This document shows positions 1 through 11,211 of a stretch of 12,717 nucleotides of DNA, piece by piece. Origin of the DNA: a virus (taxonomy: Duplodnaviria > Heunggongvirae > Uroviricota > Caudoviricetes); the IMG/VR virus record IMGVR_UViG_2681813421_000003, one strand, 5' to 3'. The position numbers and the translations under genes were made by a program. Position 1 is the first letter of the stretch; the number at the start of each line of letters is the position of its first letter. The notes below the pieces were generated by a model that saw nothing but the letters and a program-made list of their open reading frames with translations, did not search any database and had not been told where the DNA came from.

Positions 1-123
1 GAGCTGGTGGAGACGCGGGAACGACTGGTGAGAGACGCTGATGATTTTGTCGCAGTGGCGATCGCTGGTTTCAATCAGATGAATCGTGGTGGCCCGGCAG
101 GAAATGCCTTGGTGATGCACTAA
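1..123 (+). CDS. 3' end of an upstream gene (partial, unknown function)
   Basis: Frame 1 is open from the window edge to TAA at 121-123 (…ELVETRERLVRDADDFVAVAIAGFNQMNRGGPAGNALVMH*). Its position directly upstream of the replication initiator suggests a cII/YdaT-position gene, but there is no recognisable motif. Confidence 0.35.
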   Translation, partial: ELVETRERLVRDADDFVAVAIAGFNQMNRGGPAGNALVMH

Positions 124-146
124 AAGCACGGTGTTCGGAGTTTTTT

Positions 147-1094
147 ATGAGCAGCAAGCTTCATGGTCTTGTCTGGGAAGGGTGTGCCTTCACCGGCATG
201 ATCTTATCCAGGGTGGCAGTTATGGCTCGCCTTGCAGATTACAGCAATGACGAAGGTGTGTCATGGCCTGCAGTGGAGACCATTCGTCGTCAGATTGGGG
301 CAAAGAGTGAATCAACGGTTAAAGCTGCGATAGCAGAACTGGAAAAGAACGGCTGGCTGACGAAGGAGGAACGTAAGGTCGGTGGGCGTAATGAAAGCAA
401 TATCTACCGTCTTAATGTGGAAAAACTCGAAGCAGCAGCAGCGGCGGCGCGTGAGGCATATAAACCGAAAAGAAAAATTAGCCAGGCAAAAAATGACCCG
501 TCAAATATTGCCCCCTCAACGGTTAACCCATCAAATTTTGATGGATCAACCGTTGATAAAAAACAGTCGGATAGGGGGGCGATGGTTGGCCCCGATCCGT
601 CAGTATTAAAACCTGATCCGTCAGATAAAAGATCTTTTCGTCCGGAAGCTTCGCAACCGGACATGCAGACGGCTGAACAGGATTTTTTAACCCGACACCC
701 TGACGCGGTTGTGTTCAGTGCGAAAAAACGCCAGTGGGGTAGCCAGGAAGATTTAGCGTGTGCGCAGTGGATCTGGGGGCGAATCGTGAGTCTTTACGAG
801 CAGGCCGCCAGCGATGATGGCGAGATTTCGCGACCGAAAGAACCCAACTGGACCGCATGGGCCAACGACGTGCGCACAATGCGGATGCTGGATGGCAGAA
901 CTCACAGACAAATTTGTGAAATGTTTGGTCGGGTGCAGCGGGATCCATTTTGGGTAAAAAATATCATGAGTCCGTCAAAGCTTCGCGAAAAATGGGATGA
1001 ACTGGTTATCCGCCTGGGGCGTTCGTCTGTACAGCGTTGTGTGAATCATATTTCTGAGCCGGATACCGAAATTCCGCCGGGATTCAGGGGGTGA
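147..1094 (+). CDS. phage replication initiation / primosomal protein (lambda O-like, DnaT-like), N-terminal helix-turn-helix
   Basis: 315-aa ORF with a GGAG Shine-Dalgarno 6 nt upstream. The N-terminus (…VSWPAVETIRRQIGAKSESTVKAAIAELEKNGWL…) is typical of phage replication-initiator HTH domains. It lies immediately upstream of a DnaC-like loader and contains iteron-like repeats internally, as lambda O does. From memory it resembles Rac YdaU. Confidence 0.8.
   Translation: MSSKLHGLVWEGCAFTGMILSRVAVMARLADYSNDEGVSWPAVETIRRQIGAKSESTVKAAIAELEKNGWLTKEERKVGGRNESNIYRLNVEKLEAAAAAAREAYKPKRKISQAKNDPSNIAPSTVNPSNFDGSTVDKKQSDRGAMVGPDPSVLKPDPSDKRSFRPEASQPDMQTAEQDFLTRHPDAVVFSAKKRQWGSQEDLACAQWIWGRIVSLYEQAASDDGEISRPKEPNWTAWANDVRTMRMLDGRTHRQICEMFGRVQRDPFWVKNIMSPSKLREKWDELVIRLGRSSVQRCVNHISEPDTEIPPGFRG
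495..630. repeat. iteron-like direct repeats, putative origin of replication embedded in the initiator gene
   Basis: Four ~16-bp related repeats: gacccgtcaaatattg (495-510), aacccatcaaattttg (525-540), gatccgtcagtattaa (594-609), gatccgtcagataaaa (615-630), plus the palindrome gatcaaccgttgat (544-557). An A/T-richer stretch follows. The arrangement mirrors ori-lambda inside gene O. Confidence 0.5.
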
Positions 1095-1100
1095 CGTGTC

Positions 1101-1847
1101 ATGAAAAACATTGCGGCAGGTGGTGTTCTTGAGCGTATCCGTAAGCTGGCCCCACAGCATGTAATCGCGCCGTACCGGACAGTGGACGAGTGGCGCGAGT
1201 GGCAACTAGCAGAAGGGCGAAAACGTAGCGAGGAAATCAACCGCCAGAATCGCCAGTTGCGGGTGGAAAAAATCCTGAATCGTTCGGGCATCCAGCCTCT
1301 GCACAGCAAATGCTCGTTTGCGAATTATCAGGTGCAGAATGACGGGCAAAAACACGCGCTGAGCCAGGCAAAATCCATCGCTGACGAACTGATGACCGGG
1401 TGCACGAATTTTGTGTTCAGCGGTAAGCCGGGTACCGGAAAGAACCACCTTGCAGCCGCCATTGGTAATCATCTTCTGGCGAAAGGTCGCAGCGTGATTG
1501 TGATAACGGTGGCTGATGTGATGCTGGCGTTACACAACAGCTACGACAACAAAAACTCAGGCGAAAAATTTTTACAGGGGTTGTGTGATGTTGACCTGCT
1601 TGTCCTGGATGAAATCGGAATGCAGCGGGATACGCGCAACGAGCAGGTCACGCTGAACCAGATAGTCGACCGCAGAACGGCTTCGATGCGCAGTGTCGGA
1701 ATGCTGACAAACCTGAACCACGTAGCGATGAGTACGCTTCTTGGTGAGCGTGTAATGGACCGCATGGTCATGAACGGTGGTCGCTGGGTGAATTTTAACT
1801 GGGAGAGCTGGCGTTCGAATGTCAGGCACCTGAGGGTTGTGAAGTAA
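1101..1847 (+). CDS. DnaC-like replicative helicase loader (AAA+ ATPase)
   Basis: 248 aa with a Walker A motif (FSGKPGTGKNHLAAAIG) and Walker B (DLLVLDEIG). It is colinear with E. coli DnaC from MKN… through …LGERVMDRM…NFNWESWRS. From memory it resembles Rac YdaV. Confidence 0.9.
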   Translation: MKNIAAGGVLERIRKLAPQHVIAPYRTVDEWREWQLAEGRKRSEEINRQNRQLRVEKILNRSGIQPLHSKCSFANYQVQNDGQKHALSQAKSIADELMTGCTNFVFSGKPGTGKNHLAAAIGNHLLAKGRSVIVITVADVMLALHNSYDNKNSGEKFLQGLCDVDLLVLDEIGMQRDTRNEQVTLNQIVDRRTASMRSVGMLTNLNHVAMSTLLGERVMDRMVMNGGRWVNFNWESWRSNVRHLRVVK

Positions 1848-1868
1848 TTTTGTCCGGAGGAAATTTTA

Positions 1869-2630
1869 ATGGAAACCGTTTTTGACGCACTGAAAGCAAT
1901 GGGAAAAGCCACATCCATAGAACTTGCTGCGCGACTTGATATCAGTCGTGAAGAAGTGCTGAACGAACTATGGGAACTGAAAAAGGCTGGTTTCGTTGAT
2001 AAAAGCGCGTACACCTGGCGTGTGGCTGATAACAACGTTCAGCAGGAACAGCCAGCGCAGGCAGAACTGCCGGAAGAAACCTCCACGGCGACAGTAGCGA
2101 AAATCTCAGAGTGCGATTTAACCGCGACGATTGAACAACACGGACCACAAACGGCTGATGAGCTGGCTACATTGTTTGGTACCACATCACGCAAAGTGGC
2201 TTCAACGCTGGCAATGGCAATCAGCAAAGGACGCCTGATTCGTGCAAATCAGGACGGTAAATTTCGTTACTGCATGCCGGGCGATAATTTACCAGCAGAG
2301 CCGAAAGCAGCATCGGTAGCGGAAACTGATGGTAAAGCCTTTCCTCAGCCTGCATGTGTTGCGTTACCAGTACAGGAGGCTGCAACACAGGAAGATATTA
2401 AAACAGAAACTGTGGCGGACATTGTGCAGTCGCTGCCATCGTTTACTGAAACGCGAGCGGATGACCTGGTTTTACCATCGCTGCATATGGCAAACCGCGA
2501 ACTGCGTCGGGCGAAAAGTCATGCCCAGAAGTGGGAACGAGTCTGCGCCGCGCTGCGGGAGCTGAACAAGCACCGGGATATTGTTCGACATATTTTCGAT
2601 TCCTCCAGTCATATTGTGTCGGAAAAGTGA
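1869..2630 (+). CDS. hypothetical phage protein with N-terminal winged-helix-like domain (YdaW-position gene)
   Basis: 253-aa ORF with GGAGG 8 nt upstream. The N-terminal ~45 aa (…[29 protein letters not shown]) look like a wHTH; the rest is acidic and low-complexity. No function can be assigned from sequence. Confidence 0.65.
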
Positions 2631-2646
2631 TTCCTGGGGAGGGCTT

Positions 2647-3069
2647 ATGGCAAAAGTTTTTACACAAGAAGAGCGAGAAAAAATTAAAGGGCAGGTTGTT
2701 GAACTCGTACGCCAGAGTGGGCGTGAGACGTTACGGCAACTGGAAGTCAAGACAGGTGCGACAAGATATCTGATGAGCGTTCTCGCAAGAGAGCTGGTTG
2801 CCAGCGGCGATGTATACAACTCTGGTTACGGGTTATTCCCGTCTGAACAGGCGCGTAAGGACTGGCAAAATGCCCGTAAAAAACTATCAAGGGCAAAGGT
2901 GAAGAAACCGGTTGTGGTTGATCCTGACCTTATCTGGTCATTACCCGACGGAGAAATACGTCGTTACGACAGGCGTCTGAACATAATCTGTCGCGAGTGC
3001 CGGAAGAGTGAGGTTATGCAGCGAGTGCTGGCGTTTTATCAGGGTAATTTTCAGGAGGTGATGGCGTGA
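2647..3069 (+). CDS. hypothetical nin-region-like protein
   Basis: The tracked ORF 2581-3069 was trimmed to the ATG at 2647, which has GGGGAGGG 4 nt upstream. 140 aa, basic, with a C-terminal ICRECRK motif. Its stop overlaps the next gene's start (GTGA). Confidence 0.55.
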   Translation: MAKVFTQEEREKIKGQVVELVRQSGRETLRQLEVKTGATRYLMSVLARELVASGDVYNSGYGLFPSEQARKDWQNARKKLSRAKVKKPVVVDPDLIWSLPDGEIRRYDRRLNIICRECRKSEVMQRVLAFYQGNFQEVMA

Positions 3070-3479
3070 GGGTGAGGGTTTATATCGCTGGTCCGATGAC
3101 CGGGTATAAAAATTTCAACCGTGAGGCGTTCCACAAGGCGGAAGAGGAACTGAAACGGGAAGGGCATACAGTCTTGAACCCGGCAGTACTTCCGGACGGG
3201 CTGACACAGCCACACTACATGGATATCTGCATGGCGATGATTCGTTGCGTGGATGCGATTTACATGCTGCAAGGCTGGCAGCGGTCAGCAGGCGCTAAAG
3301 CGGAACTGGCTCTGGCGGAGAAGCTAGGGCATGTGGTTGTTTTTCAGAGGGGGCGATATGCCGATTCTCTGGTTTCAGGAGGTGTGGGAAAAAGAAATGT
3401 GGGAAGGTCTTGTGATTGTGGCCGAAACAGTTCTTTTATTATGGTCTGTGATTGCGTGTATTTTTATGATTTATTGTGA
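3066..3479 (+). CDS. DUF4406-like / nucleoside 2-deoxyribosyltransferase-like protein
   Basis: GTG start with AGGAGG 8 nt upstream. The N-terminal ~95 aa (VYIAGPMTGYKNFNREAFHKAEEELKREGHTVLNPAVLP…GWQRSAGAKAELALAEKLGHVV) match the family. The reading frame then runs ~40 aa further than expected for this family. Confidence 0.6.
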   Translation: MRVRVYIAGPMTGYKNFNREAFHKAEEELKREGHTVLNPAVLPDGLTQPHYMDICMAMIRCVDAIYMLQGWQRSAGAKAELALAEKLGHVVVFQRGRYADSLVSGGVGKRNVGRSCDCGRNSSFIMVCDCVYFYDLL

Positions 3480-3483
3480 ATGA
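3358..3483 (+). CDS. putative small hydrophobic peptide (41 aa), unannotated short ORF
   Basis: ATG at 3358 with AGAGGGGG 4 nt upstream. Encodes MPILWFQEVWEKEMWEGLVIVAETVLLLWSVIACIFMIYCE, with one predicted transmembrane segment. It overlaps the 3' tail of the DUF4406 ORF in another frame. Below the 60-aa cut-off of the ORF track. Confidence 0.25.
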   Translation: MPILWFQEVWEKEMWEGLVIVAETVLLLWSVIACIFMIYCE

Positions 3484-3510
3484 TGTGAATCTCGCGGTGG
3501 CCACTGAATT

Positions 3511-3553
3511 GCAACCATTACCCCCTGTGATGTAATTGTGGGGTAATGGTTGC
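3511..3553. repeat. perfect 14-bp inverted repeat with 15-nt spacer (hairpin or protein-binding site)
   Basis: gcaaccattacccc (3511-3524) pairs with ggggtaatggttgc (3540-3553). No T-run follows, so it is not a canonical intrinsic terminator. It sits in the intergenic gap upstream of the 3587 gene. Confidence 0.6.
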
Positions 3554-3586
3554 GCAGGCATAGCGACAGGACTGGATGAGAAAAAT

Positions 3587-4009
3587 ATGACGAAATTTAC
3601 CAGAGAGCAATTGATTGCTCATGCTAATGAAAGTGTGAAATCCATGAAATTTGCTGCGCGACAGACCGTGTTTAAGACTTCAAGAGTTGCCATTGAAATG
3701 GATCTTGCGCTTGCCCGTATTGCGCTTGCCTCACTTGAAGCAATGCCAGTTGCATGGTCCTGTGCTCACAATATGGTTTTGTTCAATGCTGAATCTGTTG
3801 CGGCATACGCAAAACACTCAGCCATTGCGCCAAAACCCCTGTACGCTGCGCAACCGGCATCACTTTCACATGAGGAAGAGTTGACAATGCTGGTTAAACA
3901 ATTGGTAAGTCAGTTGAAAAAAGCGAAACCAGATTGCAAATTACCGGATATGGCGATGGGGTATCTGGAGCGGAATGGGCTGATAAGCGCGGAGGATGTT
4001 TTACGATGA
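3587..4009 (+). CDS. hypothetical phage protein
   Basis: The tracked ORF 3536-4009 was trimmed to the ATG at 3587 (MTKFTREQLIAHANE…), because the 3536 start lies inside the inverted repeat. 140 aa, with no recognisable motif. Confidence 0.5.
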   Translation: MTKFTREQLIAHANESVKSMKFAARQTVFKTSRVAIEMDLALARIALASLEAMPVAWSCAHNMVLFNAESVAAYAKHSAIAPKPLYAAQPASLSHEEELTMLVKQLVSQLKKAKPDCKLPDMAMGYLERNGLISAEDVLR

Positions 4010-4089
4010 CCTGGCCGGAGGCATTCACAACGACAGGAATTGCAATGGCGGCAGCACTTGTTGTGTATTCGATTTGCCGCTGGGGATAA
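4006..4089 (+). CDS. putative small hydrophobic peptide (27 aa), translationally coupled
   Basis: ATGA stop/start overlap with the upstream gene. Encodes MTWPEAFTTTGIAMAAALVVYSICRWG. Below the ORF-track cut-off; there is no homology evidence. Confidence 0.2.
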   Translation: MTWPEAFTTTGIAMAAALVVYSICRWG

Positions 4090-4096
4090 AAACGGT

Positions 4097-4124
4097 TTGC
4101 AGTGAAAGGGGAGTTAAGTAGAAT
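4097..4124 (+). promoter_or_regulatory. putative sigma70 promoter of the hok transcript
   Basis: TTGCAG (4097-4102), a 16-nt spacer, then TAGAAT (4119-4124). The predicted start near 4131 places the 5' end exactly at the segment that is complementary to the 3' end of the locus. Confidence 0.4.
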
Positions 4125-4300
4125 TGCTGCGGGTGCTTGAGGCTATCTGCCTCAGGCATGAACACCAAAAGGCAGATAGAGAAAAGCCCCAGTTAACATT
4201 ACGCGTCCTGCAAGACGCTTAACATTAATCTGAGGCTCAATCTATGTCTCACAAATGTAGGTTAGCCTCTTACGTGCCGAAAGGCAAGGAGAAGCAGGCT

Positions 4301-4456
4301 ATGAAGCAGCAAAAGGCGATGTTAATCGCCCTTATCGTCATCTGTTTAACCGTCATAGTGACGGCACTGGTAACGAGGAAAGACCTCTGCGAGGTACGAA
4401 TCCGAACCGGCCAGACGGAGGTCGCTGTCTTCACAGCTTACGAACCTGAGGAGTAA
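4301..4456 (+). CDS. hok: Hok/Gef-family type I toxin (small membrane-depolarising peptide)
   Basis: 51 aa, MKQQKAMLIALIVICLTVIVTALVTRKDLCEVRIRTGQTEVAVFTAYEPEE, with the hallmark transmembrane helix followed by the conserved Cys and the RTG motif. It matches HokD/RelF-type peptides from memory. AAGGAG lies 9 nt upstream. An in-frame upstream ATG at 4244, with a GAGG Shine-Dalgarno, would give a 70-aa mok-like extended product. Confidence 0.85.
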   Translation: MKQQKAMLIALIVICLTVIVTALVTRKDLCEVRIRTGQTEVAVFTAYEPEE

Positions 4457-4463
4457 GAGACCA

Positions 4464-4485
4464 GGCGAGGGAGAAATCCCTCGCC
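4464..4485 (+). other. stable stem-loop with GAAA tetraloop in the hok 3' UTR
   Basis: ggcgaggga (4464-4472), loop gaaa, tccctcgcc (4477-4485): a 9-bp stem directly after the hok stop codon. Confidence 0.6.
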
Positions 4486-4524
4486 ACCTCTGATGTGTCA
4501 GGCATCCTCAACGCACCCGCACTT

Positions 4525-4546
4525 AACCCGCTTCGGCGGGTTTTTC
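4525..4546 (+). terminator. intrinsic terminator (hok 3' end); first copy of a duplicated 20-mer
   Basis: Stem cccgc / gcggg with a ttcg loop (4527-4540), followed by TTTTT. The 20-mer aacccgcttcggcgggtttt (4525-4544) recurs identically at 5372-5391. Confidence 0.7.
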
Positions 4547-4671
4547 GTCGCATAATGAGGTTGTAATTTTAGCTACCATTAGACTATCCTAAGGATCTCA
4601 AACAGATCTATTTTGCATCAAATTTGGTGCATGGCTTTGCCAATAATCGGAAAACAAAAGGACTCATTAGT

Positions 4672-4851
4672 ATGAGCTGCCCACTCAAAAAACACACGCG
4701 GTTGAGTATTCCGCCTCGCGATAAAAGCGTTGTGGCAGTCCCTCGCCCAGCGATTGATGAAAACTGCGCACATCGTGAACAAGTGAAAAATGCTTTTGAT
4801 TTCGGTTTTTCTCGTTATGAGAAAGCCATGGAAGAACTTTCAAAAGTGTAA
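4672..4851 (+). CDS. putative antitoxin partner of the Doc-family toxin (unclassified small protein)
   Basis: 59 aa, from the ATG at 4672 with AAAGGA 9 nt upstream; the tracked ORF begins at 4624 but has no Shine-Dalgarno. It ends 18 nt before the Doc-family gene. Not obviously Phd/YefM-like, so the call rests on position only. Confidence 0.45.
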   Translation: MSCPLKKHTRLSIPPRDKSVVAVPRPAIDENCAHREQVKNAFDFGFSRYEKAMEELSKV

Positions 4852-4869
4852 TGATGGGTATTGTGCTCT

Positions 4870-5355
4870 ATGGCTGAGATTGTTGAAGGAGTGCATTACC
4901 TTACGGTTGATGATCTTGTTGAAATCAATCGTTCCCTAATTGAATTACAGACGCCAGATGAGCCCGTTGGTGTTCTGAGTCCAGATAACTTAAGTTCTTC
5001 TCAGGCCCGTCCCAGCATGGTTCGATGGTATGAACAGACTAATGACATGTTTGTACTGGCATCGGTATTGATTGAAAGTCTGATTCAGAATCATCCGTTT
5101 GCTAATGCGAACAAACGAACAGCTATGATGGCTGGTTACGTCTTCTTGTTGTTGAATGGCTATGAGTTAACAGCACCAGGCGATGAAATCGTGGAAATGG
5201 CAGAGGGACTGGCCTGCAAAACCTATACTCGAGAAGATCTCGAGAACTGGTTGTGTTATTGGTCTCGCGCGTATGACAGCCGGGAATTATGTAAAACAGG
5301 CGCAACTATTGTTTTGTATGAAACTATCAAGCTTAAAATAGAACAGCAAAACTAA
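4870..5355 (+). CDS. Doc/Fic-family (death-on-curing) toxin
   Basis: 161 aa containing HPFANANKRTA, which fits the Doc-type motif HxFx(D/N)(A/G)NKR. Overall size and layout are typical of Doc toxins. Confidence 0.8.
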   Translation: MAEIVEGVHYLTVDDLVEINRSLIELQTPDEPVGVLSPDNLSSSQARPSMVRWYEQTNDMFVLASVLIESLIQNHPFANANKRTAMMAGYVFLLLNGYELTAPGDEIVEMAEGLACKTYTREDLENWLCYWSRAYDSRELCKTGATIVLYETIKLKIEQQN

Positions 5356-5371
5356 AGGTGCTTCCAATGAA

Positions 5372-5398
5372 AACCCGCTTCGGCGGGTTTTGTTTTTT
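5372..5398 (+). terminator. intrinsic terminator after the Doc gene; second copy of the duplicated 20-mer
   Basis: Stem cccgc / gcggg with a ttcg loop (5374-5387), followed by ttttgtttttt. Identical 20-mer to 4525-4544. Confidence 0.7.
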
Positions 5399-5470
5399 CC
5401 TGGCATTCTGGTTTACAATTCGCACGCCAGCCTGAACAACTGGCACCTGCTGCGCCAGCAGAGACAACCG

Positions 5471-5743
5471 ATGGCGCACAAAAACAAATTTCACAATTCT
5501 GATACCGACCTTGCCATCCGGCACGGGCGGCGTTCACACGCATTTAAAACCGACTGGTACCAACACCCACCATGTACTGAAGAACAGGCCGAATGGCTAA
5601 TTCATAACTACCGCAGGCGCGGATACGAGGTTAAGAAAGCCCTCAGCCTCGATTATCGTCACTGGATAATCTATGTCAGGCTCCCTTATTCCGAACGCCC
5701 ACCGCGTCCGTCCCGCACATTCCAGCAACGCATCTGGAGGTAA
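5471..5743 (+). CDS. hypothetical basic protein (orphan ORF at a deletion junction)
   Basis: The tracked ORF 5390-5743 begins inside the terminator, so the first plausible start is the ATG at 5471 (MAHKNKFHNSD…), giving 90 aa. Weak Shine-Dalgarno and no recognisable domain. Confidence 0.35.
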   Translation: MAHKNKFHNSDTDLAIRHGRRSHAFKTDWYQHPPCTEEQAEWLIHNYRRRGYEVKKALSLDYRHWIIYVRLPYSERPPRPSRTFQQRIWR

Positions 5744-5748
5744 CGTGC

Positions 5749-6183
5749 GGGTATTACTTCGACCTGTTCCGGTATCCCAACGGCACTGTTGATGTTTTCC
5801 GTGGCTGGCTGAGCTCACTGGGTAAAACCATTGCCTCAAAAGACGTGATGACCCGCACTGTGAAAATCAGCGGTGTGGGGCGTCCACATCTGGCAGAGGA
5901 AGGCACTGAAACCGTGAGCGTTACCGGGCTGACAGTAGCACCGGCATCTGCCAGTGTAAGAGTGGGAGCAACCACCACGCTGACCTTTACAGTAAAACCT
6001 GACGAAGCCAGTGACAAAGCGATCAGTGTGCATTCGACAGATCCACAGACTGCCACGGTGACCCTGAACGGGCTTGTGGCCACGGTGAAAGGCGTGAAGC
6101 AGGGCAGTGTCAGTATTGTGGGCATGACTTCTGACGGCGATTTTGTGGCAGTGGCTACGGTGGCTGTCAGCGCCGCAGGTTAA
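5749..6183 (+). pseudogene. V: major tail protein V, N-terminally truncated remnant (C-terminal Ig-like/Big_2 part retained)
   Basis: Frame 1 translation …[38 protein letters not shown]… is colinear with lambda gpV (…[39 protein letters not shown]…) through to the C-terminal Ig-like domain. There is no start codon or N-terminal domain; the frame is open from 5635 but similarity begins only around 5750. Confidence 0.7.
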
Positions 6184-6203
6184 CAGGACGATACTCATCA
6201 TTT

Positions 6204-6228
6204 GCCCCGGTTATCCGGGGCTTTTTTG
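6204..6228 (+). terminator. hairpin + T-run between V remnant and G
   Basis: gccccgg ttat ccggggc followed by TTTTTT (6222-6227). Confidence 0.5.
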
Positions 6229-6240
6229 CAGGTGGAGAAC

Positions 6241-6630
6241 ATGATGTTTCTGAAACAGGACACGTTTAATTATGAAAAACAGTCCGTGGTGCTCAGTGAG
6301 CTGTCCGGGCTGCAGAGAATTGAATATCTGACGTTTGTTCAGCAGCGAACGGCAAAGTTTGATGCCGGGGAGGGAGAGCTGCCGGGGGCTGAACGACAGA
6401 TTGCTTTTCTGCGGATGGGGATGGATATCAATGCCTGGCTGGTTTCCCGCTCACTGTGGAATGCGGAACAGTCTCAGGATGTTGAGACGCTTTACGCATC
6501 CGTTATTACAACATGGTCGTATGATGCCCTGGGGGCGGGGGCAGAGATGGTTCTGTCGCTGAGCGGTATGGGAGCCATTGAGAATGCCGGGGATTTGGAG
6601 CATGAGGTGCTGACGCCGGAAAAGTCCTGA
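6241..6630 (+). CDS. G: tail assembly chaperone G
   Basis: MMFLKQDTFNYEKQSVVLSELSGLQRIEYL… aligns with lambda gpG (MFLKTESFEHNGVTVTLSELSALQRIEHL…). The tracked ORF was trimmed to the ATG at 6241; 6244 is an alternative start, with GGAG upstream. Confidence 0.85.
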   Translation: MMFLKQDTFNYEKQSVVLSELSGLQRIEYLTFVQQRTAKFDAGEGELPGAERQIAFLRMGMDINAWLVSRSLWNAEQSQDVETLYASVITTWSYDALGAGAEMVLSLSGMGAIENAGDLEHEVLTPEKS

Positions 6631-6968
6631 CGCGGGAAATGCAGTTTGTCATGCGGCTTGCCCGGGAGTTCCGGCGGGCAGACTGGCGGCGGATGCTGTC
6701 GGAAATGTCGGCCACTGAGCTTGGTGAGTGGGGCGATTATTTCCGGATGCAGAGCTTCAGTGATGTGTGGATGGATGCGCAGTTTGCCTCGCTGAAGGCA
6801 TTGATCGTGAGAATGGTGTCCGGCAGCAGTGATGCTGTGGTGGCTGATTTCAGCCTTTTACCGGAAGAGAACGGGATACCGGAGCGAACGGACGAAGAAC
6901 TGATGCATCTTGGGGAAGGTATTTCCGGAGGTGTGCGTTATGGACCAGATAGCCAACCTGGTCATTGA
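6618..6968 (+). CDS. T: tail assembly chaperone T segment, expressed as G-T fusion by -1 frameshift
   Basis: An ORF in the -1 frame relative to G overlaps the G 3' end with no stop between. A candidate slip site is G GAA AAG at 6618-6624, just before the G stop codon. The arrangement is the conserved lambda G/GT one. Confidence 0.6.
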   Translation, partial: GKVLTREMQFVMRLAREFRRADWRRMLSEMSATELGEWGDYFRMQSFSDVWMDAQFASLKALIVRMVSGSSDAVVADFSLLPEENGIPERTDEELMHLGEGISGGVRYGPDSQPGH

Positions 6969-9900
6969 TTTGGGGATTGATGCGGCAGAGTTTAAAAATG
7001 AAATTCCCCGTATCAAAAACCTTCTGAATGGTGCAGCCAGCGATGCAGAACGGTCTTCTGCCCGTATGCAGCGTTTTATGGAGCGTCAGACTCAGGCCGC
7101 CCGGCAGACAACGCAGGCGGCTTCTTCGGCTGCAACAGCCGCATCCGTCCATGCGCAGACGGTGGAGAAGAACGCACAGGCCCATGAACGCATGGCCCGT
7201 GAGGTGGAGCAAACCCGCCAGCGCATGGAGGCACTGAGCCAGAAAATGCGCGAGGAACAGGCGCAGGCCATGGCTCTGGCGGAGGCTCAGGATAAAGCGG
7301 CTGCTGCGTTTTATCGTCAGATTGACAGTGTGAAACAGGCCAGTGCGGGGCTGCAGGAATTACAGCGTATTCAGCAGCAGATCCGACAGGCCAGAAACAG
7401 CGGCGGGATTGGTCAGCAGGATTATCTGGCGCTGATTTCTGAGGTTACGGCGAAAACCCGTGTTCTTACACAGGCTGAGGAAGAGGCTACCCGACAGAAA
7501 GTGGCGTTTATCCGTCAGCTTAAAGAGCAGGCAACCCGCCAGAATCTTTCATCTTCTGAGTTGCTTCGCGCCAGGGCAGCCCAGCTGGGGGTAAGCGGTG
7601 CTGCAGAAGTGTATATCCGCAAAATGGAGCGGGCAGGAAAAGCCACGCATTCGCTGGGTCTGAAAAGTGCAGCAGCCCGCCAGGAGATAGGCGTTCTGAT
7701 AGGTGAACTGGCCCGCGGCAATTTAGGGGCGCTGAGGGGATCCGGGATAACGCTGGCTAACCGTGCCGGATGGATAGACACACTGATGTCACCGAAAGGC
7801 ATGATGCTTGGCGGGGTTATTGGCGGTATTGCCGCGGCCGTCTATGGTCTGGGTAAAGCCTGGTATGACGGTCAGAAGGAGGGGGAAGAATTTAACCGCC
7901 AGCTGTCGCTGACGGGGCATTATGCCGGAGTCACTGCCGGGCAGCTGTGGGTGCTCAGTCGTGCTATTTCCGGGAATGGTATCACGCAACATGCTGCAGC
8001 CGGTGCGCTGGCTCAGGTGGTGGGGAGTGGTGCATTTCGTGGAGGTGATATCGCCATGGTGGCGAAAGCTGCCGCGCAAATGGAACGTTCAGTGGGGCAG
8101 TCTGTCAGCGACACCATAAGTCAGTTTAAGCGACTGAAGGATGATCCGGTAAATGCAGCCAGGACGCTGGATAATGAACTGCATTTCCTGACTGCCACCC
8201 AGCTTGAACAAGTCCGTGTTCTCGGGGAACAGGGGCGTGCCAGTGATGCTGCCCGGATCGCCATGTCAGCGCTGGCAGAGGAAACCGGTAAACGCACATC
8301 TGATATTGATAATAATCTCAATGCGCTGGGCAGTACGCTGCAAACCTTATCTGACTGGTGGAAGCAGTTCTGGGATGCCGCCATGAATATCGGGCGTAAT
8401 GATTCCCTTGATGCGCAGATTGCGGCGCTGCAGGAAAAAATTCAGCGTGCGAAAAAATCGCCCTGGACAAATGCATCCACCACAGTGGAATACGACCAGC
8501 AGCGCCTTGATGAACTTCAGGAGAAAAAGCGCCAGAAAGATTTACAGGATGCAAAAGCGCAGGCTGAACGAAATTATCAGGAACAGCAGAAACGCCGGAA
8601 TGCTGAAAATGCTGCGCTGAACCGGATGAATGAAACGGAGGCGGCGCGACATCAACGTGAAATTGCGCGCATCAATGCCATGCAGTATGCCGACCAGGCG
8701 GTCAGGGACGCAGCGATACAGCGTGAAAATGAACGTTACAAAAAAGCCATTAAGAAAAAAACATCTGAAAACCGCAATGATGAAGCCACCCGGTTGCTGT
8801 TGCAGTACAGTCAGCAGCAGGCGCAGGTGGAGGGGCAGATTGCCGCCGCCAGACAGTCCGCGGGACTGACCACGGAAAAAATGACAGAGGCGCATAAGCA
8901 GCTTCTGGCCCTGCAGCAGCGTATCAGTGATCTGGCGGGTAAAAAGCTGACAGCAGATGAAAAAAGCGTGCTGGCGCATAAGGATGAGTTGATTCAGGCA
9001 CTGACGCTGCTGGATACAAAACAGCAGGAGCTGCAGAAGCAGACGGCGCTGAATGACCTGAAGAAAAAATCCATTCAGCTTGCCAGCCAGCTGGCGGAAG
9101 AGGAACGGGCTCTGCGTCAGCAACATGACCTGGATATCGCCACAACAGGGATGGGGGATAAACAGCGTCAGCGGTACCAGACACAGTTCAGTCTGCAACA
9201 GAAATATCAGCAGCAAATGGAGCAACTGGAGCGTGACAGTAAACAGAAAGGAACATACGGCTCAGATGAATACCGGGATGCTGAGCAGATGCTGACAGAC
9301 AGTCTTAACCGGCAACTGAACGAAAACAGACATTACTGGCAGGAGCAGGAACTGATGCAGGCAGACTGGAAAAACGGTGCCATGCGGGCGTTTCAGAATT
9401 TTACAGAGAGTGCGGATAACGCGGCAGGTACCGCTGAGCAGATGTTTACAGCGGCATTTAACAGCGCAGGTAATGCACTGGCGACGTTCTGCACCACCGG
9501 AAAACTGAACTTCAAATCTTTTACCGCCTCGCTCCTTTCTGATCTGGCAAAAATCATGTCGCAGATGGCCATGATGCAGGCGGTGAAGGGGATTGGTTCG
9601 GCGTTTGGCTGGGGGAGTGCAGCAGCTGCCAGTGTGACGCCAAATGCGGATGGCGGTGTTTATCAGTCTGCTGATTTGAGTCGCTACAGTGGCACGGTGG
9701 TTAACCGTCCGACGTTTTTTGCTTTTGCAAAAGGCGCGGGTGTGATGGGAGAAGCGGGGCCTGAAGCCATTCTGCCATTGCGTCGTGGTGCTGATGGCAA
9801 GCTGGGTGTTGTGGCGGATATTGGTGGTTCAGGTATGGTGATGTTTGCCCCGCAGTACAACATCGAGATCAATAACGATGGTACGAACGGGCAGATAGGT

Positions 9901-10005
9901 CCGGCTGCCCTGAAGGTGGTTTATGACCTCGGGAAAAAAGCAGCAGCGGACTTTATGCAACAGCAGGCCCGTGATGGTGGTCGGTTAAGTGGAGCATATC
10001 GGTAA
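6940..10005 (+). CDS. H: tail tape measure protein
   Basis: 1021 aa from the ATG at 6940 with GGAGG upstream. Long Q/A/R/E-rich coiled-coil body and a Gly-rich C-terminal region. It lies immediately after G-T and before M, as lambda H does. Confidence 0.9.
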   Translation: MDQIANLVIDLGIDAAEFKNEIPRIKNLLNGAASDAERSSARMQRFMERQTQAARQTTQAASSAATAASVHAQTVEKNAQAHERMAREVEQTRQRMEALSQKMREEQAQAMALAEAQDKAAAAFYRQIDSVKQASAGLQELQRIQQQIRQARNSGGIGQQDYLALISEVTAKTRVLTQAEEEATRQKVAFIRQLKEQATRQNLSSSELLRARAAQLGVSGAAEVYIRKMERAGKATHSLGLKSAAARQEIGVLIGELARGNLGALRGSGITLANRAGWIDTLMSPKGMMLGGVIGGIAAAVYGLGKAWYDGQKEGEEFNRQLSLTGHYAGVTAGQLWVLSRAISGNGITQHAAAGALAQVVGSGAFRGGDIAMVAKAAAQMERSVGQSVSDTISQFKRLKDDPVNAARTLDNELHFLTATQLEQVRVLGEQGRASDAARIAMSALAEETGKRTSDIDNNLNALGSTLQTLSDWWKQFWDAAMNIGRNDSLDAQIAALQEKIQRAKKSPWTNASTTVEYDQQRLDELQEKKRQKDLQDAKAQAERNYQEQQKRRNAENAALNRMNETEAARHQREIARINAMQYADQAVRDAAIQRENERYKKAIKKKTSENRNDEATRLLLQYSQQQAQVEGQIAAARQSAGLTTEKMTEAHKQLLALQQRISDLAGKKLTADEKSVLAHKDELIQALTLLDTKQQELQKQTALNDLKKKSIQLASQLAEEERALRQQHDLDIATTGMGDKQRQRYQTQFSLQQKYQQQMEQLERDSKQKGTYGSDEYRDAEQMLTDSLNRQLNENRHYWQEQELMQADWKNGAMRAFQNFTESADNAAGTAEQMFTAAFNSAGNALATFCTTGKLNFKSFTASLLSDLAKIMSQMAMMQAVKGIGSAFGWGSAAAASVTPNADGGVYQSADLSRYSGTVVNRPTFFAFAKGAGVMGEAGPEAILPLRRGADGKLGVVADIGGSGMVMFAPQYNIEINNDGTNGQIGPAALKVVYDLGKKAAADFMQQQARDGGRLSGAYR

Positions 10006-10334
10006 TGGAGACGTTTCACTGGAAAGTGCGCCCGGATATGAATGTGGTATCAGAGCCGAAAGTGGTGACAGTGAAGCTGGGCGATGGTTATGAACAGCGT
10101 CGTGCGGCGGGACTGAATAACCAGTTGTCGACTTACAGCGTGACGATACGTGTTCGTAAATGTGAACACCCATCTTTGAAAGCCTTTCTGGAACGGCACG
10201 GTGGCGTCCGCGCATTTCAGTGGACGCCACCTTATGACTGGAAGCCGATCACGGTGGTTTGTCGTAAATGGTCGGCAAGCGTGGGGGCGCTGTGGGTAAC
10301 CATAACGGCAGATTTTGAACAGGTCGTGGCATAG
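10005..10334 (+). CDS. M: minor tail protein M
   Basis: METFHWKVRPDMNVVSEPK…GDGYEQRRAAGLN…TYSVT…WTPPYDW…FEQVV matches lambda gpM along its length. Its start overlaps the H stop (TAATG). Confidence 0.9.
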   Translation: METFHWKVRPDMNVVSEPKVVTVKLGDGYEQRRAAGLNNQLSTYSVTIRVRKCEHPSLKAFLERHGGVRAFQWTPPYDWKPITVVCRKWSASVGALWVTITADFEQVVA

Positions 10335-10343
10335 GAGGCCCTG

Positions 10344-11042
10344 ATGCAGGATATTCCACAGGAAACACATCATGAGACGACACGCCTTACTCAGTCAGCC
10401 CAAGTGGTGCTCTGGGAAATCGATCTGACAGAGGTCGGTGGTGAACGTTATTTTTTCTGTAATGAGCAGAACGAAAAAGGTGAGCCGGTCACCTGGCAGG
10501 GGCGGCAGTATCAGGCATACCCCATTCAGGGGACGGGATTTGAACTGAACGGTAAGGGCAGTGCTGCCCGTCCGACACTGACGGTCTCTAACCTGCACGG
10601 CATGGTCACCGGGATGGCGGAAGACCTGCAGAGTCTGGTCGGCGGAACGGTGGTCAGGCGTAAGGTTTACGCCCGCTTTCTGGATGCGGTGAACTTCGTC
10701 AACGGAAACAGCGACGCCGATCCGGAGCAGGAGGTGATCAGCCGCTGGCGCATCGAGCAGTGTAGCGAACTGAGTGCGGTCAGTGCCTCCTTTGTGCTCT
10801 CCACACCGACGGAAACGGATGGTGCTGTTTTTCCGGGGCGCATCATGCTGGCCAACACCTGCACCTGGACCTATCGCGGCGATGAGTGCGGTTATCACGG
10901 TCCGGCTGTCGCTGATGAATATGACCAGCCGACGTCCGATATCACGAAGGATAAATGCAGCAAATGCCTGAGTGGTTGTAAGTTTCGCAATAACGTCGGC
11001 AACTTTGGCGGCTTCCTTTCCATTAACAAACTTTCGCAGTAA
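10344..11042 (+). CDS. L: minor tail protein L (Fe-S cluster tail tip protein)
   Basis: 232 aa with AGGAGG 5 nt upstream. It carries the conserved C-terminal cysteine cluster (CTWTYRGDECGYHG … CSKCLSGCKF). Confidence 0.9.
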   Translation: MQDIPQETHHETTRLTQSAQVVLWEIDLTEVGGERYFFCNEQNEKGEPVTWQGRQYQAYPIQGTGFELNGKGSAARPTLTVSNLHGMVTGMAEDLQSLVGGTVVRRKVYARFLDAVNFVNGNSDADPEQEVISRWRIEQCSELSAVSASFVLSTPTETDGAVFPGRIMLANTCTWTYRGDECGYHGPAVADEYDQPTSDITKDKCSKCLSGCKFRNNVGNFGGFLSINKLSQ

Positions 11043-11046
11043 TCCC

Positions 11047-11211
11047 ATGACACAGACAGAATCAGCGATTCTGGCGCACGCCCGGCGATGTGCGCCAGCG
11101 GAATCGTGCGGCTTCGTGGTGAGAACGCCGGAGGGGGAAAGATATTTTCCCTGCGTGAATATCTCCGGTGAGCCGGAGGCGTATTCCGGCGGTGGCATTC
11201 AGTGGCGCTAA
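11047..11211 (+). pseudogene. K: tail assembly protein K, truncated after ~46 residues
   Basis: [46 protein letters not shown] is a typical K N-terminus. It is then followed by unrelated residues (SGGGIQWR) and a stop, so the peptidase core is absent. Confidence 0.75.

Follow-up and report, generated by a model that had tools for sequence, protein, structure and literature searches.

The lambdoid Stx2 phage 933W and Sakai prophage Sp5 carry a hokW-mokW-sokW locus consisting of a hok promoter, tac, mok, hok, fbi and an antisense sok, and both Hok toxicity and its Sok-dependent rescue are known for hokW-sokW (PMC8621323), which is 93% identical to the locus described below. Among cryptic prophages, a type II module next to a type I toxin has a precedent in relB-relE-hokD (relBEF) of the Qin prophage of Escherichia coli K-12. 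Lambdoid morons are promoter-gene-terminator units inserted between conserved genes. Among Doc toxins, the phd-doc module of P1 mediates post-segregational killing (PMC10899753), and the Doc consensus HxFx(D/N)(A/G)NKR is of the kinase type, with Lys rather than Gly at position 8 (PMC4177925). The PanA:Doc pair of Corynebacterium doosanense further indicates that a short C-terminal helical Phd-C element suffices to neutralise Doc, without a globular or DNA-binding domain (Ernits et al. 2023, PMC10440598).

The window analysed here is the whole 12,717-nt stretch of IMG/VR record IMGVR_UViG_2681813421_000003 (Caudoviricetes). Two unrelated toxin systems, a hok/mok/sok locus and a Doc cassette, were found side by side in it, as the initial annotation had proposed. 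The hok locus has the same elements as that of 933W, with 93.4% DNA identity over 439 nt and 47 of 51 Hok residues identical (92%). In 933W, by contrast, hokW is followed by a YgiW-like gene, the CCCGCTTCGGCGGG terminator and a Doc cassette are both absent, and the prophage is inducible, whereas the window prophage has no late genes. With K-12 Qin the window shares an identical Hok protein (HokD/RelF of strain MG1655, same accession WP_000813254.1), the same terminator and a position in the nin slot, with a small ORF and ydfU (DUF968) downstream. In Qin, however, relBE is found on the upstream side, in place of the hok leader, mok and sok, and homology begins only at window position 4287, while in the window hok/sok is complete and the type II-like module is Doc, located downstream of the terminator.

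Similarly to P1 phd-doc, the window module combines a toxin of the Doc subfamily (TIGR01550) bearing a kinase-type motif with a small partner gene immediately upstream, and is carried by a temperate phage. It differs from P1 in that identity to P1 Doc is 34% over 47 residues only, the window toxin is 35 residues longer, and the partner, a 59-aa protein, is not Phd and has no folded DNA-binding domain in an AlphaFold2 model. The invariant C-terminal helix of this partner recalls Phd-C in concept, without demonstrated sequence similarity; Phd-C consists of two helices on a Panacea or Phd domain, whereas a single helix is predicted in the window partner, after a disordered IPPRDK segment. The Doc cassette also resembles lambdoid morons in its presence/absence polymorphism with a precise empty site, its own terminator, its deviant GC content, a weak candidate promoter that keeps its position from variant to variant, and mosaic boundaries falling exactly at the terminator. 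Its boundaries are formed by a perfect 20-nt duplication of the terminator of the adjacent gene, which morons do not generally show.

Anatomy of the hok/mok/sok locus

Judged by its sequence, the segment at 4096–4547 is a complete hok/mok/sok type I locus. The type I toxin module expected in this part of the window was borne out by matches of both the RNA leader and the protein. The Rfam hok leader (RF01794) aligned to 4131–4306 on the plus strand with a score of 121.6 bits (gathering score 59), over the full model length, beginning at the 5′ end of the mRNA and reaching the AUG of hok. The 51-aa hok toxin gene (4301–4456, plus strand) matched Pfam HOK_GEF (PF01848; E = 3e-23, 81.6 bits versus a cut-off of 22) and phrog_251 (2.8e-33). 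A 70-aa mok frame (4244–4456, plus strand) runs in frame with hok to a common stop codon and is the counterpart of mokW as annotated in phage 933W.

A promoter-like site for hok (4096–4124, plus strand; TTTGCA, 17-nt spacer, TAGAAT; 9 of 12 consensus positions) ends 7 nt upstream of the hok mRNA 5′ end at 4131, and nearly all of its positions, both hexamers included, were invariant across four aligned hok loci including that of 933W. The full-length hok mRNA (4131–4547, plus strand) starts with the tac element GGGUGCUUGAGG, predicted to pair with the 3′ fbi element at approximately 4506–4518. Consistent with this, nucleotides 1–12 paired with the fbi element CCUCAACGCACCC near the 3′ end in the minimum-free-energy fold of 4131–4548 (-173.7 kcal/mol, z = -7.66 versus shuffles). 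On the opposite strand, a putative Sok antisense RNA (4182–4252, minus strand) overlaps the mok start codon, aligns with the annotated sokW of 933W and folds into a free 5′ tail and a long hairpin (-33 kcal/mol, z = -5.45). Its candidate promoter (4259–4287, minus strand; TTGCCT, 17-nt spacer, TAACCT), read by eye and scoring below the consensus-scan threshold, would place the start site at about 4252; this region was nearly invariant in the hok alignment. The locus closes with a terminator hairpin at 4525–4547 (plus strand), the first copy of a 20-nt direct repeat, at which hok homology stops in thousands of genomes.

All hok regulatory elements were intact and nearly invariant in comparison with the functional hokW-sokW, with compensatory stem changes between variants. 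A hok locus was present in approximately 87% of complete E. coli genomes, mostly in multiple copies, with many defective prophages, as well as the Qin remnant of K-12, among the carriers. Under the mechanism proposed for such a locus, the stable hok mRNA would stay translationally silent as long as the 5′ tac element is paired with the 3′ fbi element, and the short-lived antisense Sok RNA would block translation of mok and hok. Were transcription of the locus to stop, Sok would decay, the processed hok mRNA would be translated and the 51-aa Hok peptide would depolarise the inner membrane.

The Doc cassette, its small partner and the terminator repeat

The second toxin module, of the Doc/Fic type and directly downstream of hok, consists of a toxin gene at 4870–5355 preceded by a 59-aa ORF. 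Both lie on the plus strand within an 847-bp cassette (4545–5391, plus strand) that comprises a weak putative promoter, the two ORFs and a terminator, and its GC content is 42.9%, versus 51–53% for the flanks. In the window the shared terminator sequence AACCCGCTTCGGCGGGTTTT has two exact copies, at 4525 and 5372, and no more; chance would give 0.01 matches even with three mismatches allowed. The downstream copy is followed by a T-run and forms the cassette terminator (5370–5398, plus strand; repeat search and terminator scan), right after which the sequences of doc-bearing prophages diverge; the T-run of the upstream copy, belonging to hok, is short, and the scan did not count this copy as terminator-like.

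A construct representing the empty site, in which 4345–4544 was joined to 5392–5700, matched as one continuous piece (98.6% identity) and was present in this form in 3051 of the 5426 complete E. coli genomes; the arrangement can be seen in an individual doc-less locus (L006). The 20-nt repeat was found in two copies in every doc locus examined and in one copy in doc-less loci. Because the empty site exists as one continuous piece, Doc is recognised as a moron inserted at the hok terminator, and the hok terminator is present twice because the insertion took place exactly there. The earlier proposal that a shared terminator ties the two modules together was thus right as to the repeat itself, which exists in two exact copies. 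It fails as to a functional tie, since the repeat is the duplicated boundary of the inserted 847-bp cassette. Sub-threshold Rfam matches at the two terminators (rsmX, isrK, RydC and istR) were rejected as reflecting the shared hairpin only.

The toxin itself (161 aa) was assigned to the Doc family by TIGR01550 (DOC_P1; 128.5 bits versus a cut-off of 38.65), Pfam Fic (PF02661; 6.9e-12) and phrog_577 (Doc-like toxin; 1.8e-51), with matches to PDB entries 9vzc (4.7e-13) and 3k33, the P1 Doc (5.6e-5). Its Fic motif HPFANANKR (residues 75–83) agrees with the kinase-type Doc consensus and was invariant across homologues from five genera; the protein retained 56–96% identity across genera. Going by this motif, the window Doc would be expected to phosphorylate EF-Tu and so to arrest translation. 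Both ORFs of the module are full length and the catalytic motif is intact. A weak candidate promoter for the operon (4561–4590, plus strand; TTGTAA, 18-nt spacer, TATCCT) was absent from the consensus scan; TTGTGA and TATGCT, separated by an 18-nt spacer, occupy the same position with the same layout in the O104:H4, O157:H7 and M19 loci, whose intergenic variant has otherwise diverged.

The partner ORF (4672–4851, plus strand), a probable Doc antitoxin, ends 18 bp before doc. It matched phrog_2208 (unknown function; 6.9e-41) and returned no match in Pfam, NCBIfam or PDB, the PDB profile search yielding no Phd and, as its sole match, a chance ribosomal one. Identification of the partner as Phd was rejected, given a probability of 0.4% in hhalign against P1 Phd, nothing in Pfam or NCBIfam and no PhdYeFM match. 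AlphaFold2, run with 12 sequences, left residues 1–33 unstructured and modelled a single helix at 34–57 (pLDDT > 90), with no N-terminal DNA-binding domain predicted. The family has 38 representatives among 1.84 billion proteins, mostly 47–69 aa long; in four of the five representatives of 82–121 aa, no known DNA-binding domain was seen by eye. The partner shows an invariant IPPRDK motif within the disordered segment and an invariant C-terminal helix (AF..RYEKA.EEL.KV).

In 16 loci, a homologue sharing at least 53% identity with the partner immediately precedes Doc; these are the window, E1316, E1739, three other E. coli prophages, Salmonella, eight other species and two Pseudomonas phages. 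Homologues with no Doc gene after them were also encountered, one 66% identical on a metagenomic contig (L012) and two distant ones (L025 and L027). P1-type Phd-Doc modules have a Phd/YefM antitoxin upstream and an autoregulating N-terminal DNA-binding domain, and neither was found in the 59-aa partner. Since the partner lacks both Phd similarity and a predicted DNA-binding domain, a classical autoregulated type II circuit is not established; the module does share with type II systems in general a small partner gene conserved directly before the toxin gene within a single operon. The 59-aa protein, presumably labile, most likely acts through its invariant C-terminal helix to neutralise Doc.

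Prophage setting and the deletion junction

The host element is a decayed lambda-like (lambdoid) E. coli prophage integrated at ompW, with two large internal deletions and a DUF4406 pseudogene. Comparison with related prophages places the hok/sok and Doc cassettes in their native nin (early-right) slot, between the replication genes and DUF968-RusA-Q. Prophages E1316, E1739 and 510016 carry the same hok and Doc modules followed by DUF968, RusA and Q, and the first two are 100% identical to window positions 1–5774. The O104:H4, O157:H7 and M19 prophages likewise have the pair in the nin region, with late-region genes downstream; among these three, Q is annotated only in O104:H4.

Downstream of the cassettes, a small 90-aa nin-region ORF with no assigned function (5471–5743, plus strand; phrog_1212, 1.3e-36), which normally precedes DUF968, is intact in the window and has the same annotated position in E1316, 510016 and K-12. 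It is followed by the first 10 codons of the DUF968 gene (5745–5774, plus strand), which break off at the junction 5773/5774; E1316 has DUF968, RusA and Q in full. Beyond the junction lie a 3′ remnant of tail gene V (5775–6183, plus strand), encoding the Ig-like C-terminal part of the major tail protein, and then tail genes G to L. Window positions 5773–11188 correspond to 9001–14417 of L002 at 95.5% identity, the match starting inside the tail gene in the V position (L002 8668–9411). At the junction, DUF968 codon 10 runs into the interior of tail gene V in a different frame, with a 2-bp TA overlap.

No exact match to the junction was found among species-representative genomes or JGI metagenomes, and in no complete E. 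coli genome did a single place cover 80% or more of the window. Because no independent copy of the junction was found, the scar is defined by comparison with relatives alone. The deletion is a separate, independent event of illegitimate recombination.

The initial annotation had put the modules immediately next to the deletion scar and in the place of the Q, lysis and head genes, which would make them an island that occupies or has replaced the late segment, is linked to the scar and is held together by a common terminator. The two modules do lie less than 400 bp from a genuine deletion junction, and the two terminators are identical across 20 nt. Nevertheless, the scar is situated approximately 375 bp beyond the Doc terminator with the intact nin ORF in between, the relatives identical over 1–5774 have the modules and then DUF968, RusA and Q, the O104:H4, O157:H7 and M19 prophages keep the pair upstream of late-region genes, and the insertion polymorphism accounts for the terminator repeat. 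We therefore regard this reading as highly improbable. The pair of cassettes is neither a product of the loss of the late genes nor a stand-in for them.

Complete E. coli genomes with doc numbered 125, with an adjoining hok in 120. In Salmonella, hok accompanies Doc on the opposite strand, and Yersinia, Serratia, Kluyvera, Morganella, Providencia and Pseudomonas phages have the Doc pair without hok. Obligate functional coupling of hok and Doc was rejected, as no match to the hok leader was found beside Doc in eight other species and two Pseudomonas phages. Toxin-antitoxin genes pile up at the nin site elsewhere, as in a Salmonella locus (L009), which has hok, doc, ParDE and VapBC, and in O104:H4, which has hok, doc and RelE/ParE. 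Searching the literature with the protein accession retrieved no report. A catalogued defence-system label was also considered and rejected, PADLOC-DB v2 giving weak matches for Doc (PDC-S23, PDC-S05) and none for Hok or the 59-aa ORF.

Biological role and wider meaning

We infer both the activity of the two toxins in the window's strain and their biological role. The likeliest explanation, to which we assign a probability of roughly 0.7, is that the nin region holds two autonomous, independently mobile TA cassettes of an ordinary kind whose net effect is probably selfish retention (addiction), the deletion being independent of them. Loss of the DNA segment with both cassettes would leave the cell killed or arrested, and protection against other phages would be a by-product, if it occurs. 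R1 hok-sok and P1 phd-doc kill cells that lose the replicon, with survival of 1.5e-2 and 6.4e-4, respectively (PMC10899753). The addiction role is suggested by analogy, post-segregational killing being known from plasmid and P1 homologues and not from chromosomal deletion of the window segment. Counting against it, the documented role of the prophage hokW-sokW locus is a benefit to the phage through help with lysis on induction, rather than proven addiction (PMC8621323).

Sequence does not separate addiction from abortive infection, a point on which we agree with the initial annotation. If the pair were primarily an abortive-infection island, a superinfecting lytic phage shutting down host transcription and translation would cause decay of Sok and of the labile 59-aa protein, Hok would collapse the membrane and Doc would stop translation, and the infected cell would die or stall before phage release. 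R1 hok-sok on a high-copy plasmid lowered the plating efficiency of T4 by 42% and plaque size by ~85%, as cited in PMC8621323, a small effect that depended on the high-copy plasmid. The gathering of TA modules at the nin site in L009 and O104:H4 resembles prophage defence hotspots, and Pseudomonas temperate phages carry the Doc module too. Yet neither module was recognised by PADLOC models (best Doc matches E = 0.002–0.023, to unrelated candidate systems), and our literature searches turned up no Doc toxin described as acting in phage defence. We consider a primary role of this kind possible but rather unlikely. We give a similarly tentative standing to a broader proposal in which the partner is a distinct, non-Phd family of Doc antidotes without a DNA-binding domain, its Doc-less homologues (e.g. 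L012) may serve as phage anti-Doc counter-defence, the CCCGCTTCGGCGGG terminator may act as a recombination anchor stacking TA cassettes at the nin site, and hok-doc (and hok-doc-parDE-vapBC in Salmonella) may form a dedicated layered abortive-infection hotspot of lambdoid prophages.

A benefit to the phage itself is unlikely to be the explanation here, although it has direct precedent. In Sp5 (933W-like), sokW RNA is depleted by mitomycin C, production of HokW depends on RecA and phage release is halved without hokW-sokW (PMC8621323), and the window locus is 93% identical to hokW-sokW in DNA and 92% in protein. On this reading, hok/sok would be an aid to lysis and progeny release, left functionless in this prophage by the loss of its lysis and head genes, and Doc a passenger moron. 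Such a role does not explain Doc, and sits poorly with a hok locus that occurs in so many genomes, defective prophages among them, and that is sequence-perfect despite two large deletions, which points to retention that does not depend on the ability to lyse. In laboratory K-12, several of the chromosomal hok loci are described as inactive relics, and one or both modules could likewise lack any present function. The heavy decay of the prophage, with its two internal deletions and pseudogene, the short T-run of the first terminator copy and the weak Doc operon promoter are in line with this. Set against these are the intact, nearly invariant hok regulatory elements with their compensatory stem changes, the full-length Doc-module ORFs, and the intact catalytic motif in a toxin conserved across genera, and we find inactivity of either module improbable. 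Addiction by two autonomous cassettes remains our preferred interpretation.

The main value of the analysis is corrective, in that what looked like a toxin island replacing late genes is ordinary nin content for this prophage lineage, unrelated to the deletion beside it. The terminator duplication and the precise empty site document the gain, or possibly the loss, of a TA moron at a very common prophage hok locus. Novelty is modest and lies in a Doc partner that is unannotated, minimal and not Phd-like. Should the partner be confirmed as an antitoxin, "hypothetical protein" labels would need to be updated in approximately 2% of complete E. coli genomes, as well as in several other Enterobacterales and in Pseudomonas phages, and the partner would be a further natural case in which a bare linear or helical element neutralises Doc.

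A hok/sok locus and a Doc cassette on one strand

The interval 4097–5398 holds two gene modules, both on the plus strand, a hok/mok/sok locus followed by a Doc cassette (847-bp unit, 4545–5391), and the initial annotation was right to place two unrelated toxin systems side by side. The Rfam 'sok' model RF01794, which in effect covers the hok mRNA leader from its 5′ end to the hok AUG, matched at full length at 4131–4306 (+) with 121.6 bits (E = 7e-28; gathering score 59). A 70-aa mok frame (4244–4456, +) includes, in frame, the 51-aa hok coding sequence (4301–4456, +; Pfam HOK_GEF, 3e-23), the product of which also matches phrog_251 'MokW-like host killing'. The promoter-like site at 4096–4124 (+; TTTGCA, 17-nt spacer, TAGAAT) ends 7 nt 5′ of the mRNA start. 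When 4131–4548 was folded (−173.7 kcal/mol, z = −7.66), the 5′ element GGGUGCUUGAGG paired with the 3′ element CCUCAACGCACCC at ~4506–4518, a predicted pairing that corresponds to the tac-fbi fold-back of hok mRNAs. The sokW RNA annotation of phage 933W projects onto ~4182–4252 of the minus strand, which folds as a free 5′ tail and a long hairpin (z = −5.45), with a weak candidate sok promoter (−; TTGCCT, 17-nt spacer, TAACCT) just upstream. Across an alignment of four hok variants, promoter and leader are nearly invariant and the stems show compensatory changes. Hok shares its RefSeq accession with MG1655 HokD and is therefore identical to K-12 HokD/RelF; since ~87% of complete E. coli genomes also have a match to the hok/sok locus, this half of the pair is already known. 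In the standard circuit, Sok decay would permit Hok translation and hence membrane depolarisation.

Just 5′ of the hok promoter, a 27-aa hydrophobic ORF (MTWPEAFTTTGIAMAAALVVYSICRWG, 4006–4089) overlaps the stop codon of an upstream 140-aa ORF via an ATGA motif; the O104:H4 and O157:H7 loci have a different small ORF annotated in this position.

The 161-aa toxin ORF of the second module (4870–5355, +), already labelled as Doc by PGAP, matched Pfam Fic (6.9e-12), TIGR01550 DOC_P1 (128.5 bits, cut-off 38.65), phrog_577 'Doc-like toxin' and the solved Doc structures 9vzc (4.7e-13) and P1 Doc 3k33 (5.6e-5). With P1 Doc it shares a low 34% identity across 47 residues. Its motif HPFANANKR conforms to the Doc-specific consensus HxFx(D/N)(A/G)NKR, in which Lys at position 8 makes Doc an EF-Tu kinase rather than an AMPylase (PMC4177925). 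According to the standard circuit, loss of the partner protein would free Doc to phosphorylate EF-Tu and arrest translation. RefSeq also annotates a 63-aa antisense 'hypothetical protein' (5333–5524, −) spanning the Doc terminator, probably a spurious call.

Position of the modules relative to the deletion scar

ETEC strains E1316 and E1739 have a prophage integrated at ompW that matches window positions 1–5774 with 100% identity, and in it both modules are followed by a small ORF, a complete DUF968 gene, RusA, Q, a kinase/phosphatase pair and a methyltransferase. The hok-doc pair likewise sits in the nin region of the O104:H4, O157:H7 and M19 prophages, with nin and late-region genes downstream of it (Q being annotated only in O104:H4 among these three). 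This shared order places the modules, on comparative grounds, in their native nin slot with no late genes displaced, contrary to the suggestion that they stand in place of Q, lysis and head genes. The proposed scar beside them does exist, as a junction at 5773/5774, but ~375 bp past the Doc terminator and separated from it by an intact 90-aa nin ORF (5471–5743, +; phrog_1212). At this junction the DUF968 gene, cut after ~10 codons, is joined out of frame, with a 2-bp TA overlap, to the interior of a V-position tail gene, and tail genes G, T, H, M and L follow the remnant. Searches of complete E. coli genomes, species-representative genomes and JGI metagenome contigs did not recover the junction.

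Late-region deletions differ in E1316 and E1739 (holin to tail-fibre assembly; tRNAs to lom'); all three derivatives retain the left arm, which includes both toxin-antitoxin modules. Each ETEC strain has a second, doc-less hok locus elsewhere. Compared with strain 025542-1, the window also lacks ~4.4 kb at 11182–11188, a second internal deletion that joins tail gene K (5′ part) to J (3′ end), with imperfect microhomology over a short stretch (TATT..CCGG) where they meet; next come lom and a tail-fibre N-terminus. The first 123 positions of the window are part of an immunity-region gene of the YdaT family ('toxin YdaT'), and prophage decay also shows in a DUF4406 pseudogene truncated at its C-terminus (3066–3347).

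The Doc cassette as a terminator-bounded insertion

The 20-nt sequence AACCCGCTTCGGCGGGTTTT occurs in the window at 4525 and 5372 only (chance expectation 0.01), and its first copy is the exact end of hok homology in thousands of genomes. A virtual empty site, made by fusing 4345–4544 directly to 5392–5700, gave one continuous match (best identity 98.6%), and 3051 of 5426 complete E. coli genomes contain 80% or more of it; strain 510016 has the empty-site order hokD, terminator, small ORF, DUF968, RusA, Q. The Doc module was found in only 125 of the complete genomes, always on the chromosome, and in 120 it adjoins hok. The 20-mer is present twice in each doc-bearing locus examined and once in doc-less loci and K-12; right after the second copy, different doc-bearing prophages diverge. 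The GC content of the Doc unit is 42.9%, against 51–53% in the flanks. Taken together, the empty site, copy numbers, divergence point and GC content mark the repeat, at the sequence level, as delimiting a moron that was inserted at, or is excisable from, the hok terminator; excision could proceed by recombination between the two copies. No hok leader was found beside the Doc pair in eight other species or in the two Pseudomonas phages, and in Salmonella the hok locus is on the opposite strand. The terminator sequence had been taken to tie the modules together physically; it is instead an insertion boundary, with no functional link. As far as our literature searches go, which found no description of it, this precise terminator-bounded insertion polymorphism is undescribed.

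The cassette has its own weak candidate promoter (TTGTAA, 18-nt spacer, TATCCT), conserved in position: the diverged intergenic variant has TTGTGA, an 18-nt spacer and TATGCT at the same place. The 5′ untranslated region also contains a near-perfect palindrome, TGCATCAAATTTGGTGCA (4614–4631), not conserved in the other variant (O104:H4/O157:H7).

In the textbook precedent, the cryptic K-12 prophage Qin (L013, 917–2138), the type II module relB-relE is back to back with the same hok gene at the same nin site. There, however, relBE takes the place of the hok leader, mok and sok, with homology only from window position 4287, and rem directly follows the single hok terminator, the insertion point of the Doc cassette. 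Toxin-antitoxin modules accumulate at the nin site occupied by hok-doc: O104:H4 (L003, 4636–6364) combines hok and the 59-aa ORF plus Doc with a RelE/ParE toxin and its HTH partner, and ~2.5 kb of Salmonella (L009, 2496–5009) holds hok (minus strand), the 59-aa ORF plus Doc, ParE/ParD and PIN/VapB.

A minimal Doc partner and the role of the pair

The 59-aa partner ORF (4672–4851, +) has a good Shine-Dalgarno sequence and lies 18 bases upstream of the Doc ORF. Pfam, NCBIfam and PDB searches gave no match, the sole match being phrog_2208 (unknown function). A Phd/YefM antitoxin was ruled out (0.4% probability in profile comparison with P1 Phd). AlphaFold2, run on a 12-sequence alignment, predicted no structure for residues 1–33, a single helix at 34–57 (pLDDT above 90) and no DNA-binding fold. 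The family is tiny, with 15 clusters at 90% identity and, among 1.84 billion proteins, 38 representatives at 50% identity, mostly stand-alone proteins of 47–69 aa; two segments, IPPRDK and the C-terminal AF..RYEKA.EEL.KV, are invariant.

Sixteen loci have a partner homologue (at least 53% identity) immediately 5′ of a Doc homologue. They comprise the window, its siblings E1316 and E1739 (100% identical), a further three E. coli prophages, Salmonella, Kluyvera, Serratia, Morganella, Yersinia pestis, four Providencia and two Pseudomonas temperate phages (partner 55–57%, Doc 56–57% identity). Exceptions without a following Doc gene are a 66%-identical homologue on metagenome contig L012 and two distant homologues (L025 and L027). 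This pairing and the predicted helix suggest that the partner is probably the cognate antidote and would use its helix to neutralise Doc. A linear 'Phd-C' element alone suffices to neutralise a Doc toxin (PMC10440598), to which the mode proposed here would be analogous in principle. On L012 (859–1286) the next ORF is an unrelated one of 76 aa, not Doc; this homologue may be an orphan antidote, possibly for phage counter-defence. Literature searches found no description of this minimal, non-Phd partner protein, which to that extent is undescribed.

Sequence alone cannot choose among addiction, abortive infection and help with lysis, and for the first two we agree with the initial annotation on this. 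The pair may act in abortive infection, T4 being modestly inhibited by R1 hok-sok in work cited in PMC8621323; however, PADLOC recognises neither module, and our literature searches turned up no case of a Doc toxin defending against phage. Prophage hokW-sokW aids lysis upon induction (PMC8621323), a role that would be moot here since the lysis genes are gone. By analogy, selfish retention of the DNA segment is the best-supported role of both modules, because R1 hok-sok and P1 phd-doc both kill replicon-losing cells (survival 1.5e-2 and 6.4e-4; PMC10899753).
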